Source: TPA_inf: Saccharomyces (lineage: Eukaryota). From it: 64,000 bases of DNA. The translations under genes and the position numbers were made by a program. Of this stretch, positions 1 to 8,057 are shown piece after piece. Positions within the stretch are counted from its first letter, which is position 1; each line of letters opens with the position of its first letter. The DNA is taken from contig BK006938.2 of NCBI GenBank assembly GCA_000146045.2, positions 384,001-448,000 on the forward strand, given 5' to 3'. The notes beneath the pieces are model-generated. The model made no database searches. It saw only the letters and a list, made by a program, of their open reading frames with translations, and was not told where the DNA came from.

Positions 1-600
1 GTCAACTGAAGTAGCAACGTCACTTGAGCTAGTTAGATCTGTTGATGTGGTTACCTCGTCAGAGCTTCTTGTACGATACATAGCCGCTAAACTTGATGAG
101 GCGTGTGGATCATCCGATGTAGTATACTCAATTGAAGATGTAGAGTCTGTGGAAGTAGAAATGGTAACAGAGCTACTTGGATCAGCTGGGCTAGTTTGAA
201 CGGCCGAAGTAGTTGAATCAGCTGGAGTAGTTGGGTTAATTGAAGTAGTCACAGCATTTGAACTAGTTGGGTCTGCTGAACTTGAACTGATAACAGAGCT
301 ACTTAGATCAGCTGAACTTGAACTGACTACGGAAGTAGTTGGATCAGCTGAAGTAGTTTGAACGGTCGAGGTAGTTGGGTCAGCTGAAGTAGTTGGGTCA
401 ACTGAAGTAGTTGGATCAACTGAAGTAGAACTGACTATAGAACTAGTTGGGTCAACTGAAGTAGTTGGATCAACAGAAGTAGTTTGAACGGTCGAGGTAG
501 TTGGATCAGCTGAAGTATTTGGGTCAACTGAAGTAGTTGGGTCAACTGAAGTAGTCACAGCGCTTGAACTAGTTGGGTCTTCTGAACTTGAACTTACTAC
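1..600 (-). CDS. Partial Ser/Thr-rich ORF, open to the window edge and in frame directly after the BSC1 TAA stop. Corresponds to the YDL038C/PRM7-type mucin-like region
   Basis: I checked every minus-strand codon from 600 down to 1 and found no stop. It encodes S/T/V/D-rich repeats like the BSC1 C-terminus, with imperfect 18-bp repeat units (gtagttgggtcaactgaa). Confidence 0.5.
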
Positions 601-1587
601 TTAAGTGGTTGGATCAACAGAAGTAGTTTGAATGGTTGAACTGGTTACATCGCTTGAACTACTAGAGTCACTTGAAGTGAAACTGCTGAAAGGACTAGTT
701 GAAGCTGCTAATGTGGTGACATCAGTAGATGTTCTTGAACGATAAATATCGGCTACGCTTGATGAAGTATGTGAGTCAACGGAAGTAGTAAAATCAATGG
801 ATGTAGTGGAAGAGCTTTTCACAGTAGATGACGTAGTAGTGGAAGTTTTCGTAGAGGATGAAGTAGTAGAGGATGAAGTAGTAGAGGATGAAGTAGTAGA
901 GGATGAAGTAGTAGAGGATGAAGTAGTAGAGGATGAAGTAGTAGAGGATGAAGTAGTAGAGGATGAAGTAGTAGAGGATGAAGTAGTAGAGGATGAAGTA
1001 GTAGAGGATGAAGTAGTAGAGGATGAAGTAGTAGTGGATGAAGTAGTAGTGGATGAAGTAGTAGTGGATGAAGTAGTAATGGATGAAGTAGTAATGGATG
1101 AAGACGAGGCTTTTGTACAAGTGCCATCATTGTTTCCCTTGCACTGGTAGGTCCAATAAAATCCAGGGAAATCCGTTTGTGAGTGGCCTTGATTGTCATA
1201 ATTGTTACAACCTGTCGATAAATCGAAGGTGGTTGTCCCCCATTGCCAAGTTTGCCAGTACTGAGCAGCATCACCTTGTAGATATTCGAACTGGATTTGG
1301 AAATTTGGCATCCAAACTGTGCAACCGTCAGAAGAAGGGTAAGCATAAACCTGAAAAGTGGATGTAAAATCTGTTGGATCACTGATTAGGTATGTCTTCT
1401 CATTTTTGCCGTAAAGTTGTACGGTGCTTGAGGGACCGTTGACACCAATAATCTTTAAAGACCATAAATATTTCAAAGGGATATCTTTTACGGCTTTGAC
1501 ATGAATAGTAATCTGGTATGTGTTATCCTTGACCCATGATACGGAAGTAACATCCATATCATAATGTAGTATATTCTGTTGGCTCAT
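601..1587 (-). CDS. BSC1: BSC1 (YDL037C), a flocculin/Flo11-like Ser/Thr-rich cell-surface protein. The ORF ends at a TAA (603..601) and the frame stays open past it
   Basis: 328 codons from ATG (plus-strand cat at 1585-1587) to TAA. N-terminal globular part, then (TTSSS)n low-complexity tail. Gene order matches chromosome IV. Confidence 0.7.
   Translation of the reverse strand: MSQQNILHYDMDVTSVSWVKDNTYQITIHVKAVKDIPLKYLWSLKIIGVNGPSSTVQLYGKNEKTYLISDPTDFTSTFQVYAYPSSDGCTVWMPNFQIQFEYLQGDAAQYWQTWQWGTTTFDLSTGCNNYDNQGHSQTDFPGFYWTYQCKGNNDGTCTKASSSSITTSSITTSSTTTSSTTTSSTTTSSSTTSSSTTSSSTTSSSTTSSSTTSSSTTSSSTTSSSTTSSSTTSSSTTSSSTTSSSTKTSTTTSSTVKSSSTTSIDFTTSVDSHTSSSVADIYRSRTSTDVTTLAASTSPFSSFTSSDSSSSSDVTSSTIQTTSVDPTT
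830..1100. repeat. 15-bp coding minisatellite (gaggatgaagtagta)n, about 16 copies with variants. Encodes (TTSSS)n on the minus strand
   Basis: Direct tandem repetition visible in the sequence. It generates spurious ORFs in every frame. Confidence 0.9.
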
Positions 1588-3512
1588 GTGCCAGTTGAAA
1601 TCCAAATTTGGACAACCATTGATAGCAACGCTTTCGTCTCTTTTGCTTAGATCAAATGAAGGGCTCACCTTGTCATCAATTCTATCAGCAGTCGCTGAAT
1701 TTGTGAGCAAGGCCGCAAATAGGAGGCAAAATGATATTAGTAGTTTTCTTATGAATGATGTGGATACCTATTTTACACTTTTGCAACAAGGGGAGGAAAA
1801 TTGCCAAGACCATCATGACATTGGAGGAAGTGATTTGCTTCTCTTAAATATAAAATAATTAAACGATCATGGAGATGCAGCGAACTAATGTGAAAAATTT
1901 TTCTTTCCAGTAGTATCGGTTATTCTGTAAGCATAGAATCGGGTATTAGTGGCTTGTTCCGAGCTTTTTTTCTTTGCCAATAAGAAAACAAGTAAAATGC
2001 AACGTGCAAATGCTGATCTGATCTCGCCTGGGCCAGTTTTATCGTCATGTGCGCGTGTAGGCACGAAAAAAAAGAAAAGACCGCTACCTCTCCTTCTAAA
2101 ATGACAGGAGGAGAATATAAGGTTTGGCAGCCCCTTGAAAGAGCCGCAGGAACCAAAAAAAAAAGAAGGAAAGTTTATTTTTTTCTTTTTCCAAAAGACT
2201 TTTTAAGATGTTTGTCAGCAAGATAATACAGGACCTACACGACTATCAGTCACAGCCAGAGAAACGTTTGTCGTATGATGGCAAAATATTTTTCCCACAA
2301 CTTTGAAATTATTTTCAAATATGGCAGAACAGTTTAACATTTGGTTTCAAGAGGTAGCACAAGTTCTTGAATAGTATTTGTTCGCGTTAAGATGGAAGCA
2401 GGCCAAATGCCCCAATAATCTAATAACCGTATTTTCTATGCTAAAGGAGGAACGAACACTCGGTCTTGTACAGGCAGCTCTAAAAGGAAAATTTCCATCC
2501 CCCCAGGCCAAGAAAATCAGAATCATATGGCCCCCTTCCATTCTAACGGAATAGTATATCAAAGAAATAATGTTTACGTAAGCCATAGACAAGCGATATA
2601 ATCTTTTTTATCCTTAAACTAGGTGCTTCATTAAGAAAGAAGAAGAAAAGAAGAAAGTACGACAAAGACTCCCCGCTGGACAATAAACGGGGGCGGCAGG
2701 TGTTAATTCCGAATTGAAATTTAAATTTGACATAAGCAAAGTTTAAAGTTTTTTTTTTCCAGTTCTTTTTTCCCATCGTTTTTTTTTCTAGAAGCCGGGT
2801 TTTTCACCGTCAAAAAATTTCCTAAAAAAGATCTGTCAATCATTAAGTTTTGCTTTTTCGGCTTTTAAGCCATGCTTTCAGGCAAAAATTAAGATTTCTT
2901 CGTAAAGATCGGAGCCTTACGCCCAAGAAGCAACTGGCCGTAAAATTTTTTCTTCGATCGGGTGGCAAATGGAACAGAAGATCATGAGTAGAAGGAAAAG
3001 TAAACAAAGAATTGCGTCGGTCAACCGGTTGTTGCTGCGTGCTTCAGCGGGTGATAAATAAAAGATTTCCTATCTGAGTAATCGATGACACAAGCGGTCT
3101 GCGCTCGGTCGCTTCCAAGCCTTAACAAAGTTTTTACTTTATGGTTTTTAATAAATAAATAAAAAGAAACGTGGATTTGGATAGCAGAAAGCCTCGAAGA
3201 TCATTTTATCAATGAAATTTTATGGTTAACACTTTCAAGACTCCGATTTTCTCTGCTACGTGAAATTTTAGGTTGCGAAAAGAATACTACCGGGAATACT
3301 AGGAGTGTGGAAGAAAAGAAATGGAAAAGAAAAGGAGAAGTGGTCATTCTTCACATCTCATTGTCTTCCTCCTGTAAAGATTTTAGCTTTTTTATAAATT
3401 AAGATTAAGATTGTAGCGTGATGTTCTGTTACTGTCATTTTTGATTGGCCAATGACTGATTATAACAGAAGACCAGTTTTCTATGTATTATTGTCCGACA
3501 AGTCAGGAACCT

Positions 3513-4901
3513 CTATCTTCTCAGAGCCCATTCTGGATACTCTGTTTTGTAGCACCACTTTTTCTTTTCGGTTCCTTCTTCAGTCTCAGTTGATTCGTAT
3601 AGATAGGCATGTAACCACAGATCAAGATCATTGGGGCCAGGATCAGTATACAAATCAGATTCACAAATAGAACATTTTTCTTGCCTTAATACCTCACCGT
3701 ACCCGCCATTACTATGGAACCAACTTTTAGCAGGTTTTCTTTTCCCTATTTCGTCTAGCTTAGTAATAACTATATCGAAGTCAGCCTGGCCGCCTTTTCC
3801 GAGATTGTTACCCCATACTTCATCATTGGAATAAATAGGATCGTTAGCAATTGGGTGGCCTAAGTACTGTAAATGTACTCTAATTTGATGTGATCGCCCG
3901 GTAAGCGGTTTGCACTTTACAATACTCGTTTTACCGTCGTAGCTGATTCTGTTAAAAACAGTTTTTGCATGTTTGGCTCCTTTCTCGTCCATTTGACAAA
4001 CTGCATTAAGAGCAAGCCTTGGCTCGATCAGTTTTAGAGGTTTTTCAACAATTACTTCCGTTTCTGGAAATTCTCCAACTACCTTGGCCACGTATTCCTT
4101 AGTGACTTCTCGAGCTTTTAGTTGATCGCCGATATTATCGGCTCCCTTCGGAGTTTTTGCCAAAAACATTAATCCACTTGTAAGCCTATCTAACCTATTA
4201 CATGGGTTCACAACAAATCCGAGATTATTTTGAAGCATTTTCGTAATTGTATTGAACCGATATCGGCCAGTTGGGTGAACAGGTATACCGCTCGGTTTAT
4301 CAATAACCATTATGTTATCATCTTCAAAAATAACTTTGATAGGCCTGGAAGTGACTGGAGGTTCATGTCTATGTACCTGATGCGTAATCAGGTCACCATT
4401 GCGAATTACAGTAGATAAGTCCGCAGTTTCATCGTTTATATGAACGTCCCCGTTTTCGATTGTTCTTTTATAATATTCAGATTCACGATCTCGAAATTCA
4501 GATATAAAGACATCAACCAATTTTTTATCTCTCCAACGCTCTTTGCAAAAGGTCCTGTACGTAAAATGGTAGGGCTTGATTTTCCTTAGAGGGCCATCGA
4601 TGACAATTTCATACTCTGGATCTAGTTGTCTATGTTTCTCTTTTTTGCTGCCTATCGTTCGTGATTGAAAAGTAGATTTATTAATCAAATCTGGCGATTT
4701 TTTTGATTGAGTTCGCTTTATTTTTTTTTTCTTTTGAATTTCCCTCTCTCTTTCAACCTCATTTTGCAAATGTTCATCAAACTCATTTGAGGTTGCATTA
4801 CCTGCAAAAGCAAGACCTGCAGATAATGCATTCCTTTTGAGTTGTCGAGCCATTATTACTGGCACTGTAAACAAATTTCTTAACCTATTATTTCTTTGCA
4901 T
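3513..4901 (-). CDS. PUS9: RluA-family pseudouridine synthase Pus9 (YDL036C)
   Basis: 462 aa. Catalytic motif [16 protein letters not shown] (HRLD..TSG). ATG confirmed at 4901..4899. Confidence 0.85.
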
Positions 4902-5171
4902 AAGTTTCCTATTCCATTATACGAGCACTCATCCATTTTCAAAAGTTTTTTATGAACTTTTTCTTAACTCGGTCTTTTGTTCTCTAATGGTTCGCCGCCA
5001 GACAGAAAAAAAGCTTACTTATCGAGGAATCACATTGCTTCAATGAATAAATTCTATAATGCATATACTACCTAACATATATAAGAGAAGTGAGCGTCAT
5101 TCATGTCGGCTACTTGTCAATTTGTATTACGTTCCTTACTTTCCATTTTCAAACATCGCGATACAAAAACT

Positions 5172-8057
5172 TTATAATGGTCCATTTCTTAAGAAGGCTA
5201 TCAAATCTATGCCGCTACTATCACTACTATCATTATCGTTCTGCGCCTCAATTATTGGATCAGGAGTCGTACCTGGTATTGTGGGCTTGACCAGATAATT
5301 TTCAGATGCACTAGCATCTGAATAGCGTAAATTCTTATCCTCTTCAATGCTATTCTCATCATCGTTTGTGACAATATTGCTTGAAAAGAAGCTGGATTTG
5401 ACCATACTGTTAGTTGAGACGTCCTGATGTTTATCGTGACTTTTATTTTGGTTTAATGCAAATTTCAACCCGGGTAGAGAAAAATGGTCGTTATTGTACC
5501 GTATTTTCAACAATCTGTTTAACTCATCAAGATCTATTCCGCCAAGCATTGGAATATGATGAATGATCCTCCAAAACAAGGGCACTTCAACCTCTTCGGC
5601 CGTGATGTTATTAAGCATTGCCTGTAGTTCAAGTGAATTTGATGGAAGGGAGCGATCGCTACTATTCGTTTTAGTCTCATCAGATTCTGTGCGTTTATTA
5701 TCGTTTGAATCTTTGGCTGAATAGTAGTTTTCCCAGTATTCAAAATCGTCACAATTGTCATAAAAACTAAAGTGTAGTTTTAGTTCAAACAATTGTTTAA
5801 AGAAGCGTTCAACAAACCACAGTATACGCTTCAGAGGGTTTGTAGAATATTTCCAGCATTTTCTTTTCTTCCACTTACCACGATAATACCAACCTCTTTT
5901 CCCCCAATTGCTGTGACAAAACTTCAGAATTTCCTTTTCACCAAGCTCTCCTTTCAGAATATATTTTTCAATGAGATATTTTGATTCTGTTTTTGCCCAT
6001 GAATAGTTCCAAGGTTTTTCCTTGAACAGGTAAACAATGACGTCGACGAGACAACTTAATGGTCGAACGCAAGTGTCAATGTATGTCACCCACATGGTAG
6101 GCCCATGCTTTATTTCATGATTGTATTGCAACGCATCTGCAATGATGGGGAAAAGCCATATCCCAATATACGACAGTGGATAAATGAATATTGCCCTTAG
6201 ATTCTTTTGAATTTGTGCCCTACGTTTTTTCATTTGTTTGTAGGTTTGGGCTTGGAAATGCTGTTGTACGTTGGTGAAACTTGAATTTTCGCATCTGTCT
6301 GCATTATTATTCACTCTCTCCTGTGAAAATTGTTGAGACGGAGTAAATGCTTCATTAGAAAGTGTAGGAATATTATCGGCTGGATTAGTATTATTGTTAT
6401 CAACGTTATTTTTAATATTATTACTATTATTATTATTATTGTTGTTGTTGTTGTTATTGTTATTATTATTGTTATTATTATTATTGTTATTATTATTATT
6501 GTTATTATTATTATTGCTATTATTGTTATCGTTATCGTTATCGTTATTGTTGTTGTTGTCGTCGTCGTCGTTGTTACTGTTGTTGTTGATGATGCCTCCT
6601 TTTTCCTTAATGTTACTAGTTATGTCGCTGTTATCGTTCTTATTATCATACATTGCTAAAGGAGATTCTAGAGAATTTTGGCAAGAGAAAGTCTGATGTC
6701 CCAGCATTGAACTTTTTCTTGTATCCAGTCCTTCATTTTCAACACTAAAAGTAACTTTATGCTCCTTTTGCTTGGATACTAGTTCCGAAGGATTGAGTGT
6801 GATGTCATTTTCACAATCAAAAGGATTATTTCTTTCCAAATCTGGCTGTTCAGACATTGCATATTTGGACATATCGAGTGGTTTAGCACTGTTATAGTCA
6901 AGTAAGCGAACTCCACCACTTGCCGAGACATTCTCATCACTACCTGTATTTGTTTTTCTGAATAGTGTAGGTATCTCATTCGAACTCTCACCAAAATTGA
7001 AAGTTCCATTACTACTACCTGAATCGTCTGTTTCCTCATTCGGATCTATGAACGAAATGGTGAAAAAATTCTTTAAATTTCTCAAAAGATGTAGCAATGG
7101 CAATTTAAAATAGGATCTGAAATACCATTTGGCTTTTCCCCAGTGACCGAGCCCAAATAATTTTTTCTTTTCTTTCTCTTCCTCTAGTACGTTATGGTTA
7201 AAGTCTCCAATTTGCGCTTTAATTCTTTTACTTTCACTGGTAATGAAAATATAAATACTGAGGTAGACTGCAAATATGAAAATAATAATGAAATATCTGG
7301 GACCCCAGCTTAAAACAATTTTATACCAGTACGGCTTGGGTGGTAAATAGCACCATGCACTCCAAGGTTTGTAGCCACCTTGCCTGGGAGAATCGGGAAA
7401 GTTGTAGTTATTATTATCCAGTATAATAGTGGTGTCAGAATCGTCATTGAGTTTATTATAATTAATGAAGGCTAAGCTTGCTAAAATGGCAGGTACTAAT
7501 GCAGTAATTGGCCAGATATATGACCTTTTTTTGTACAAGCCACCCTCCATATTTCCCGATCTTTTATTTCGCCATTTCCAATTAGGCTTGAAGATCAAAA
7601 TAGCAAAATGTATGGCGAATATCATTATGGCCATGTCTGCACCTTCGATGGCAAAGGCCGTAAACCAACCCAAGGTATTAAAAAATGCAGGTGTTGCATA
7701 CACACTATTATTAATAAGGATAATCATGGGATAAATCATCAGAATAAAAGCTTTAAGAAAGTCGCAAATTATCAAAAATGCGATGAGATCATGTCTGAAG
7801 ACTTTTCGTCTCTTATCCATTTTAGAAAGGAAGAACATTCCGAGGCAACCGGCAATAAGGGACACGGCAGACGCAGTTATAGCTATTATTCTTAACTGCA
7901 ACAGTTGCGGAGCCGTGAATGTAGAGGTCATCCCCGGCAACCCCAGCAGCTGGTTAACCGTGGTAGTGTTAAGCTGTCGGAGAGAATCAACTCTCTTTTC
8001 TAGTAAGGATGACCCTTTCAACGCGTTTAAATTCGGGGGAAATCCCTCAGTTATCAT
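5172..8057 (-). CDS. GPR1: Glucose-sensing G-protein-coupled receptor Gpr1 (YDL035C)
   Basis: 961 aa. Hydrophobic TM helices at both ends and a huge Asn-rich third loop. Length and position match GPR1. Confidence 0.9.
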   Translation of the reverse strand: MITEGFPPNLNALKGSSLLEKRVDSLRQLNTTTVNQLLGLPGMTSTFTAPQLLQLRIIAITASAVSLIAGCLGMFFLSKMDKRRKVFRHDLIAFLIICDFLKAFILMIYPMIILINNSVYATPAFFNTLGWFTAFAIEGADMAIMIFAIHFAILIFKPNWKWRNKRSGNMEGGLYKKRSYIWPITALVPAILASLAFINYNKLNDDSDTTIILDNNNYNFPDSPRQGGYKPWSAWCYLPPKPYWYKIVLSWGPRYFIIIFIFAVYLSIYIFITSESKRIKAQIGDFNHNVLEEEKEKKKLFGLGHWGKAKWYFRSYFKLPLLHLLRNLKNFFTISFIDPNEETDDSGSSNGTFNFGESSNEIPTLFRKTNTGSDENVSASGGVRLLDYNSAKPLDMSKYAMSEQPDLERNNPFDCENDITLNPSELVSKQKEHKVTFSVENEGLDTRKSSMLGHQTFSCQNSLESPLAMYDNKNDNSDITSNIKEKGGIINNNSNNDDDDNNNNNDNDNDNNNSNNNNNNNNNNNNNNNNNNNNNNNNNNNNNNSNNIKNNVDNNNTNPADNIPTLSNEAFTPSQQFSQERVNNNADRCENSSFTNVQQHFQAQTYKQMKKRRAQIQKNLRAIFIYPLSYIGIWLFPIIADALQYNHEIKHGPTMWVTYIDTCVRPLSCLVDVIVYLFKEKPWNYSWAKTESKYLIEKYILKGELGEKEILKFCHSNWGKRGWYYRGKWKKRKCWKYSTNPLKRILWFVERFFKQLFELKLHFSFYDNCDDFEYWENYYSAKDSNDNKRTESDETKTNSSDRSLPSNSLELQAMLNNITAEEVEVPLFWRIIHHIPMLGGIDLDELNRLLKIRYNNDHFSLPGLKFALNQNKSHDKHQDVSTNSMVKSSFFSSNIVTNDDENSIEEDKNLRYSDASASENYLVKPTIPGTTPDPIIEAQNDNDSSDSSGIDLIAFLRNGPL
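6395..6600. repeat. Imperfect AAT/AAC trinucleotide tract (plus strand shows ATT/GTT) encoding the poly-Asn/Asp loop of Gpr1
   Basis: Long run of att/gtt triplets. The poly-I/V/L ORFs on the opposite strand are artefacts. Confidence 0.9.

Follow-up and report, generated by a model that had tools for sequence, protein, structure and literature searches.

The gene that is split between BSC1 and PRM7 is already known as IMI1, a single ORF composed of YDL037C, the intergenic region, and YDL039C (Kowalec et al., 2015). IMI1 forms an uninterrupted ORF in W303, many other strains, and other Saccharomyces species, and is interrupted by a single stop in S288c (PMC12157680; bioRxiv 10.1101/2020.01.09.900480; bioRxiv 10.1101/2021.05.11.443680). 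The split and its nature as a null allele in S288c are thus published. The locus is also structurally variable (bioRxiv 10.1101/2020.01.09.900480; PMC13655127), and BSC1 and PRM7 are co-regulated and have been handled as one gene, which was reported to be alpha-specific and pheromone-regulated (bioRxiv 10.1101/2021.05.11.443680). The core-gene-set paper places the locus among the S288c strain-specific null alleles, as it does HO and HAP1 (PMC12157680). Like these two, it carries a point lesion in the reference strain and is intact in other strains. The flo8 nonsense mutation is another S288c strain-specific null allele; from all three, the present locus differs in having two lesions in one allele and in the unusual wealth of lesions that arose independently in different strains.

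Two further systems invite comparison. FLO11/MUC1 shares with this gene the signal peptide, the A domain (PDB 4UYR, E = 2.3e-89, ~75% identity), the Ser/Thr tandem repeats, the GPI signal, and repeat-number polymorphism. However, the BSC1/PRM7 gene is a paralogue at another locus, between PUS9 and NAT1, its repeat units are TTSSS, SVDPTT, and a long repeat, and the allele studied here is disabled. The readthrough genes PDE2 and BSC4 (TMV-type, stop-CAR-NBA) resemble it in having an open extension after one in-frame stop, and the BSC name is common to BSC1 and known yeast readthrough genes. Their stops are followed by CAA-NNA hexanucleotides, whereas here UAA is followed by GTA-GTA and preceded by unfavourable bases at -2 and -1; in addition, the BSC1 stop is a polymorphism within the species. 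Namy et al. (2003) reportedly measured stop-codon bypass in the reporter behind the BSC1 name, and eight of their candidates are said to have shown 3-25% bypass, six of them being insensitive to [PSI+]. The expansion of BSC given in the initial annotation, "bypass of stop codon," agrees with PMC10968208.

Reading frame and domain organization

The window is the whole stretch of DNA analysed, 64,000 nucleotides long, and the locus occupies the minus strand at its beginning. The following features were recognized:

1768..1770, minus strand: in-frame TAG, the upstream bound of the frame and the only stop in 1..1800 other than the TAA
1750..1752, minus strand: ATA (Ile) where the ancestral gene had its initiator ATG, a start-codon loss in the window allele (strain comparison)
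1687..1752, minus strand: signal-peptide-like coding segment (M/I)RKLLISFCLLFAALLTNSATA, with no AUG to translate it from in the window allele (hydropathy, inspection)
1165..1617, minus strand: Flo11 adhesion (A) domain (PF10182, PDB 4UYR)
1585..1587, minus strand: annotated start of BSC1 and first ATG of the frame; the Flo11 domain begins 10 residues before it (ATG scan, PF10182, 4UYR)
851..1103, minus strand: tandem array encoding (TTSSS)n, period 15 nt, 16.9 copies, 99% matches
601..603, minus strand: TAA nonsense codon, from TCA (Ser) via a single C-to-A change (27-locus comparison)
177..661, minus strand: 18-, 36-, and 72-nt arrays encoding SVDPTT-type Ser/Thr-rich stalk repeats and crossing the TAA (tandem-repeat scan)
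1..600, minus strand: open continuation of the same frame through the annotated "intergenic" region and the PRM7 start, leaving the window (frame scan)
79..81, minus strand: annotated start of PRM7, an ATG in the same frame as BSC1 that encodes a Met within the repeated motif ...SSLAAMYRTRSSDEVTTSTD...

A six-frame stop scan confirmed the initial annotation, which had described a single frame broken by the TAA and open through 600..1. On the minus strand, the frame of ATG 1587 contained just two stops within 1..1800, TAG 1770..1768 and TAA 603..601; it had none in 600..1 and reached the window edge, while the remaining five frames had 17–91 stops each across 1..1800. When 600..1 was shuffled with its composition kept, a 200-codon open frame was obtained in 2 of 20,000 shuffles. 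The in-frame ATGs on this strand are located at 1587, 1557, 1311, and 81. Two S288C-type contigs (L004 and L006) were 100% identical to the window across 6 kb, and in them the frame continued past the window uninterrupted until the PRM7 stop. Between the TAG and the PRM7 stop, the contigs identical to the window hold 1,260 codons with a single interruption. After the TAA, 872 codons are open in L004, which lie partly outside the window and end, in the same frame, in the GPI-like C-terminal tail ...EGSANIEAVGKLVWLAAALPLAFI*; this tail and the signal peptide were called by inspection and hydropathy only.

The encoded domains correspond to those of an adhesin. The Pfam Flo11 profile (PF10182) was matched over its full length, 1-151, with E = 1.6e-69, and the alignment with the Flo11 A domain 4UYR begins at INGCPNLDFNWHM. 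Together with the 15-nt array, these matches substantiated the flocculin-like domain and (TTSSS)n tail that had been noted upstream of the TAA. The Ser/Thr/Val/Asp repeats claimed beyond it were likewise found, in the 18/36/72-nt arrays over 177–661 (individual arrays at 177-233, 260-352, 332-555, 451-661, and 457-640). A Ser/Thr-rich tandem-repeat stalk, as expected of a Flo11-family GPI adhesin, is therefore present, and the copy number of (TTSSS)n differs among strains. The conceptual full product, with a hydrophobic leader, the Flo11 domain, Ser/Thr repeats, and a GPI-type tail, has a complete adhesin architecture. In the window allele, the TAA intervenes between the A domain and the GPI signal; the two are contiguous in six other S. 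cerevisiae alleles and in S. uvarum.

Start codon, stop codon, and other lesions among strains

Orthologous loci were gathered by synteny via the neighbouring gene PUS9. The 27 S. cerevisiae loci compared are not a random population sample. Whole-locus MAFFT alignment was unreliable in the repeats, and frame tiling and 3'-anchored pairwise alignments were used.

The initiator codon was ATG in 18 of the 27 loci and ATA in nine, including the window allele. In S. uvarum (L017) and a second Saccharomyces species (L020), an ATG-initiated MKKLL... stands at the equivalent position, and the proteins of other S. cerevisiae strains begin with MRKLLISF... The leader has an N-terminal hydropathy peak and, by inspection, an A-x-A ahead of the predicted cleavage site, and it is conserved in both outgroup loci. 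Thus, the AUG-initiated signal peptide required of a Flo11-family GPI adhesin is present in the intact alleles and outgroups, and in the window allele its initiator is ATA. As the leader is still encoded there and the intact alleles retain both leader and initiator, the ancestral gene belongs to the adhesin family and the window allele is disabled. The BSC1 coordinates of the initial annotation, 1587..601, stood at the TAA end; position 1587 did not hold as the natural N-terminus because the Flo11 domain begins at ~1617. The coordinates follow the annotation convention of taking the first ATG, and the natural N-terminus lies elsewhere. Since the annotated Met sits within the Flo11 domain, BSC1 would be made without a signal peptide. 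The initial annotation made no mention of the lost start codon or of the missing signal peptide in the window allele.

The initial annotation had also proposed looking across strains for a sense codon in place of the TAA. Such a codon was found: TCA (Ser) occupies the position in 17 of the 27 loci and TAA in 10. In the window's own repeats, the codon after Pro-Thr-Thr is TCA four times, TCG twice, and TCC once. Fewer flanking differences were observed among TAA alleles than among TCA alleles, 3.1 vs 10.7 in the 5' part and 2.8 vs 7.3 in the 3' part, that is, a diversity about 3-fold lower. As the strain comparison indicates, the TAA is a derived, polymorphic nonsense mutation, because most loci have TCA, the paralogous repeats use TCA, TCG, or TCC, and diversity flanking the TAA is lower. 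An error of sequencing or assembly could be suspected, since the TAA sits in a repeat array that is error-prone in assemblies. However, the TAA occurs within an identical 36-nt context at 10 loci from nine independent assemblies, which differ in technology and repeat length, and the proteins of further strains likewise terminate at ...SVDPTT. This excludes sequencing error as the source of the TAA and leaves an artefact with a negligible probability.

Six loci (L010, L014, L023, L024, L025, and L031) combine ATG and TCA with one ORF of 1,533-1,798 aa, which spans from the signal peptide to the GPI tail and encodes Ser at the TAA position; both short-read-era and long-read assemblies are represented among them. 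The earlier statement that some strains have a single ORF is thereby upheld. At the syntenic position in S. uvarum (L017), one ORF of 1,557 aa has the same architecture and the same neighbours. The initial annotation had offered, as one of two readings, a nonsense mutation splitting one large adhesin gene; the TCA codon in 17 of 27 loci, the six intact alleles, the single S. uvarum ORF, and PMC12157680 all support it. Disabling lesions (ATG to ATA, TCA to TAA) set against intact conspecific alleles and an outgroup are what a null allele, or unitary pseudogene, exhibits.

Other loci carry further nonsense lesions, CAG to TAG in L013 and TCA to TGA in L012, as well as a 40-nt deletion common to L003, L008, L009, and L016, a 2-nt deletion in L002, and a 10-nt duplication in L011. 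Homopolymer errors of long reads were ruled out as the cause of the frameshifts, given that these lesions are 40-nt and 2-nt deletions and a 10-nt duplication and that the 40-nt deletion was also seen in short-read-era assemblies. A protein search with the Flo11 domain returned no match longer than 533 aa; full-length FLO11 was missing from the same search as well, so that the lack of long matches reflects a limitation of the search and is not evidence. A search across the BSC1/PRM7 junction was saturated by low-complexity matches and did not return PRM7 itself, and neither the BSC1 nor the PRM7 sequence was found in an exact-sequence cluster look-up.

Proposed readthrough and separate use of the two ORFs

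The initial annotation's other reading was programmed readthrough. Under this scheme, which was put forward when the gene received its name, some ribosomes would read through the TAA in a regulated manner, and a BSC1-PRM7 fusion would be made beside the short BSC1. As in readthrough genes, an open in-frame extension follows a single stop, here for 872 codons; the BSC name derives from a reporter screen, and all 10 TAA alleles are free of a second lesion downstream. However, the stop is not conserved in relatives, as it would be in a programmed readthrough gene with its extension under coding constraint: it is polymorphic in S. cerevisiae (TCA in 17 of 27 loci), with Ser encoded at its position in the intact alleles, and it is absent from the uninterrupted ORF of S. 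uvarum. Its context, ACC-ACU-UAA-G, has the least permissive option at -2 (C), -1 (U), the stop itself, and +4 (G), according to Table 2 of PMC8087045, and is thus the most termination-efficient one. In the yeast ribosome profiling of the same paper, readthrough was lowest among UAAG genes. No element of a leaky context (UGA or UAG, C at +4, CAR-NBA) was found at the TAA, where the following hexamer, GTAGTA, does not match CAR-NBA, and no stimulatory RNA structure was detected in the 120 nt 3' of it, which folded no better than shuffles (z = -0.68). The searched supplements of PMC8087045 (yeast readthrough Ribo-seq) contained no occurrence of YDL037C. Termination at this UAA-G is probably efficient. 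In addition, translation of the window allele would start at an internal Met and the product would have no signal peptide, so that the GPI signal of the extension would be meaningless; with the initiator ATG and the signal peptide lost in this allele, a readthrough product, too, could not be a secreted adhesin. With the stop unconserved and its surroundings unfavourable, the proposal of programmed readthrough was not borne out, and we consider it extremely unlikely.

ATG and TAA are combined in L021 and L026. In strains of this type, a conditional two-product adhesin, with its anchored form made by readthrough, is conceivable, but we regard it as very unlikely. If it existed, most ribosomes would terminate and yield a secreted, unanchored Flo11-domain protein, while basal readthrough, or readthrough enhanced by [PSI+] or stress, would yield a little GPI-anchored full-length adhesin. 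The absence of second downstream lesions from all 10 TAA alleles would in that case be explained by selection acting on the extension or on a PRM7 product made independently.

It was also considered that the gene underwent fission and that selection keeps BSC1 and PRM7 as separate functional genes, BSC1 as a soluble Flo11-domain protein and PRM7 as a protein that is anchored in the membrane by its C-terminus or carries a GPI signal and that is expressed by its own promoter from ATG 81..79. The downstream 870-1,040 codons are free of a further stop or frameshift in all 10 TAA loci, whereas 11 of the 17 TCA loci carry an additional lesion; the clean frame could indicate constraint on it rather than youth of the allele. 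A Gcn4-type TGACTCA occurs at 778, ~700 nt upstream of the PRM7 ATG. Pheromone regulation has been reported for PRM7 as a gene of its own, deletion phenotypes are listed separately for both halves, and alleles such as L021 and L026 could give rise to a secreted Flo11-domain protein that lacks an anchor. However, the low diversity of the TAA clade accounts for the missing second hits. The PRM7 ATG is the Met of an internal repeat motif that is present 3-4 times in intact alleles, and as the product would have no signal peptide, its GPI tail would be unusable. BSC1 of the window allele has also lost its start codon and signal peptide. The two ORFs are regulated together, and the regulatory peaks lie upstream of BSC1. 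Fission into two maintained genes thus appears unlikely.

A probable single ancestral adhesin gene and its loss

Taken together, BSC1 and PRM7 are very probably fragments of one ancestral cell-wall adhesin gene, which the S288C-type window carries as a null allele. Positions 1..1770 on the minus strand of the window would represent the 5' two-fifths of a single ancestral Flo11-family GPI-anchored adhesin gene, presumed to have encoded a signal peptide and the Flo11 A domain, followed by a long stalk of Ser/Thr-rich repeats and a GPI signal. The allele has two derived point lesions. One changed the initiator ATG to ATA (1752..1750), leaving only the internal AUG at 1587 for starting; a protein started there is short of the signal peptide and of 10 residues at the N-terminal end of the Flo11 domain. 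The other converted a Ser codon of the stalk repeats, TCA, to TAA (603..601). Owing to the two lesions, annotation splits the locus into "BSC1," from the first ATG to the TAA, and "PRM7," which starts at the following ATG of the frame and ends at the original stop. The frame past the TAA is probably open because it was coding until recently, and not through programmed readthrough. The S288C products are probably non-functional as an adhesin. By analogy with other adhesion genes in laboratory or domesticated strains, the loss may be tolerated or favoured.

Work on function, expression, or readthrough in which BSC1 and PRM7 are handled as separate genes or as a model readthrough gene should accordingly be read with the split in mind. 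Recoding screens for an "ORF – stop – ORF" arrangement catch polymorphic pseudogenes, and within-species variation together with one outgroup quickly settles such cases. It is possibly under-appreciated that the true initiator and the signal peptide are missing in the reference allele, and that the ancestral protein resembles a secreted, GPI-anchored and, according to the literature, alpha-cell-specific adhesin. This appearance fits poorly with the description of a cytoplasmic regulator: Imi1 has been described as cytoplasmic and as affecting glutathione and mitochondria, whereas the intact alleles and outgroups analysed here encode a signal peptide and a GPI tail, as is typical of wall adhesins. 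The loss of the start codon to ATA would explain a cytoplasmic Imi1 if W303 shares the ATA. The many independent lesions across strains contribute further to the view that adhesins have been lost recurrently in S. cerevisiae.

The open frame and its 5' end

Window positions 1..2400 were read on the minus strand and 1770..1 was translated; the frame of BSC1 is bounded upstream by a TAG (1770..1768) and has as its sole interruption the TAA at 603..601, with no further stop between 600 and the end of the window. A six-frame scan found 2 stops in this frame versus 17–91 in the remaining five, and the 600..1 segment stayed open in 2 of 20,000 composition-preserving shuffles. The frame encodes a complete Flo11 domain according to Pfam (E=1.6e-69), and the structure of the Flo11 A domain (PDB 4UYR) aligns to it (E=2.3e-89). 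Thus, the single TAA in an otherwise open adhesin frame, reported in the initial annotation, is real and far beyond chance. The following features were located in this frame.

Features of the BSC1 frame
1587, 1557, 1311 and 81, minus strand: in-frame ATGs (six-frame scan)
851–1103, minus strand: near-perfect 15-nt array encoding (TTSSS)n, 16.9 copies, 99% matches (Tandem Repeats Finder)
177 to 661, minus strand: 18/36/72-nt arrays encoding SVDPTT-like units (Tandem Repeats Finder)
81..79, minus strand: ATG of the downstream gene PRM7, in the same frame as BSC1

The TAA is crossed by the 72-nt array (451–661), and the stop therefore sits within a coding repeat. A mechanical ORF list also contained ORFs of 108–187 aa (794–1382) that span the 15-nt TTSSS array in further frames of both strands; they are by-products of the repeat rather than genes.

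The matches to the Flo11 profile and to 4UYR both begin at ...INGCPNLDFNWHM... (window ~1617), 10 residues upstream of the ATG at 1587. Further upstream, the same frame encodes (I)RKLLISFCLLFAALLTNSATA, which is shaped like a secretion leader and has ATA as its first codon (1752..1750). Proteins of other strains start with MRKLLISFCLLFAALLTNSATA; among 27 S. cerevisiae loci, 18 carry ATG at this codon and nine carry ATA, and a MKKLLITF... start occupies the equivalent position in both S. uvarum and another Saccharomyces species. With ATA here, against ATG in most S. cerevisiae loci and both outgroup species, the window allele has lost its initiator. As annotated, BSC1 (1587..601) simply spans the frame from its first ATG to the stop that follows; 1587 lies inside the Flo11 domain with the ATA-headed leader upstream, and this start cuts off the signal peptide along with 10 residues at the beginning of the domain.

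The complete locus and its alleles

The BSC1 protein of the window was present on chromosome-scale S. cerevisiae contigs, and two of these, the loci L004 and L006, were 100% identical to window 6000..1. In both, the frame passes the end of the window and closes at the stop codon of the 698-aa downstream gene; across its 1,260 codons, the TAA is the sole interruption. By inspection and hydropathy, the C-terminus of the conceptual product (...SLIMEGSANIEAVGKLVWLAAALPLAFI*) resembles a GPI-attachment signal, in which a small-residue site is followed by a spacer and then a hydrophobic stretch. Together with the predicted signal peptide, the Flo11 domain, and the Ser/Thr stalk, this GPI signal gives the classic layout of yeast wall adhesins.

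The start codon of PRM7 encodes a Met that belongs to a long repeat motif inside the ancestral frame (...DDPHASSSLAAMYRTRSSDEVTTSTD...); since this motif occurs 3–4 times in intact alleles (L010, L014), the PRM7 “start” is incidental. The BSC1 coding region contains a Gcn4-type TGACTCA (772–778, minus strand) and a TGACTC half-site (665–670, minus strand), both ~600–700 nt upstream of the ATG of PRM7. A search of window 1..1800 found neither a TATA-like nor a pheromone-response (TGAAACA) motif.

Because protein searches are of limited use in a low-complexity gene, loci were collected by synteny via the adjacent pseudouridine-synthase gene (4901..3513) and variants, plus direct look-ups. This yielded 27 S. 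cerevisiae loci from 26 assemblies, a non-random sample (look-ups show places with differing neighbour genes) whose counts are not population frequencies. The anchor (3513–4901, minus strand) encodes a highly conserved PUS9-like protein of 462 aa (PF00849), which in L005 is divided between two separate gene calls (60 and 265 aa).

Start codon and codon 603..601 in the 27 loci
ATG and TCA: 16 loci
ATA and TAA: 8 loci
ATG and TAA: 2 loci
ATA and TCA: 1 locus

Lesions at other positions
Nonsense CAG→TAG in the Flo11 domain: L013
Nonsense TCA→TGA in the Flo11 domain: L012
40-nt deletion ~1,781 nt before the L004 ORF ends, between GTTCAAAC direct repeats: L003, L008, L009, L016
2-nt deletion: L002
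10-nt tandem duplication: L011

An intact single ORF of 1,533–1,798 aa, from MRKLL... to the GPI tail, was found at six loci (L010, L014, L023, L024, L025, L031). The 40-nt deletion occurs in four assemblies produced by different sequencing projects and constitutes a genuine frameshift allele, unrelated to the TAA.

None of the ten TAA-bearing loci (L004–7, L015, L021, L022, L026, L029, L030) had a second stop or frameshift in the 870–1,040 downstream codons, versus some lesion in 11 of 17 TCA loci. Selective constraint on the downstream frame may keep the TAA loci lesion-free; we attribute the pattern instead to the TAA clade being young and to one hit being sufficient.

Context of the stop codon

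Programmed readthrough of the TAA was one of two readings proposed initially, and the name BSC1 stems from stop bypass measured in reporters. Namy et al. reportedly observed in 2003 reporter bypass of 3–25% for eight candidates, six of them insensitive to [PSI+]; speculatively, a [PSI+]-insensitive reporter signal from a repetitive insert could have a non-readthrough origin. However, the stop site (ACC-ACU-UAA-GUA-GUA), when ranked by position against genome-wide yeast ribosome profiling (PMC8087045 Table 2), held the least permissive option at all four ranked positions.

Stop context and order of permissiveness
Position −2: C here; A>G>U>C
Position −1: U here; A>G>C>U
Stop: UAA here; UGA>UAG>UAA
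Position +4: G here; C>U>A>G

UAAG has been called “the most readthrough-inhibiting combination” (PMC8087045). The leaky-stop motif CAR-NBA is absent, the hexamer 3' of the stop being GTAGTA, and the 120 nt 3' of the stop folded no more stably than shuffled sequences (−19.5 kcal/mol, z=−0.68). Of four testable hallmarks of programmed readthrough, the window allele lacks three, and this reading is not supported. Any readthrough product of this allele would begin at Met 1587 and be leaderless; the GPI signal in the extension would therefore be useless.

Ancestral state and published descriptions

The strain comparison called for in the initial annotation gave TCA as the majority codon at 603..601 (17/27 loci, TAA in 10/27). 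In the window's own repeats, the codon after Pro-Thr-Thr is TCA four times, TCG twice, and TCC and CCA once each, and TCA to TAA needs one C→A change. In the non-repetitive flanks, TAA alleles showed means of 3.1 (5', 1.3 kb) and 2.8 differences (3', 1.6 kb), versus 10.7 and 7.3 for TCA alleles, an approximately 3-fold lower diversity. L026 (ATG/TAA) combines the TAA with a 5' haplotype otherwise seen in intact alleles, a sign of recombination. In S. uvarum, the syntenic region flanked by the orthologues of PUS9 and NAT1 is occupied by a single gene of 1,557 aa that is built like the intact alleles (MKKLL... leader, Flo11 domain with E=1.4e-66, Ser/Thr repeats, tail ...EGSANIQVVGKLMWLVAALPLALV*), and a 2026 paper (PMC13655127) describes the S. 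paradoxus gene as far larger than that of the S. cerevisiae reference. On this evidence, the single ORF is the ancestral state, and the ATA and TAA lesions of the S288C type are both derived. The second initial reading, a nonsense mutation splitting one large adhesin gene, is upheld by the TCA majority, the six intact ORFs, and the S. uvarum single ORF.

The ancestral gene shows every feature expected of a Flo11 adhesin; what the window allele lacks is an AUG to initiate its leader and an unbroken connection from the A domain to the GPI signal. The locus is thus best explained, very probably, as one ancestral Flo11-family adhesin gene that is null in the S288C-type allele through the derived ATA and TAA lesions.

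The split of BSC1/PRM7 by a stop is already published, and this main fact is not new. The locus has been described as structurally complex (bioRxiv 10.1101/2020.01.09.900480) and labile (PMC13655127). BSC1 and PRM7, treated as one gene in W303, are co-regulated and alpha-specific, with strong Tup1 peaks upstream of BSC1 (bioRxiv 10.1101/2021.05.11.443680), and in this regulation they resemble the agglutinin gene SAG1. Imi1, the published name for BSC1 and PRM7 together, was described as cytoplasmic and undetectable from its own promoter (PMC5223379), which conflicts with the predicted signal peptide and GPI architecture of the intact alleles; an ORF without a start codon and leader would behave in this way.
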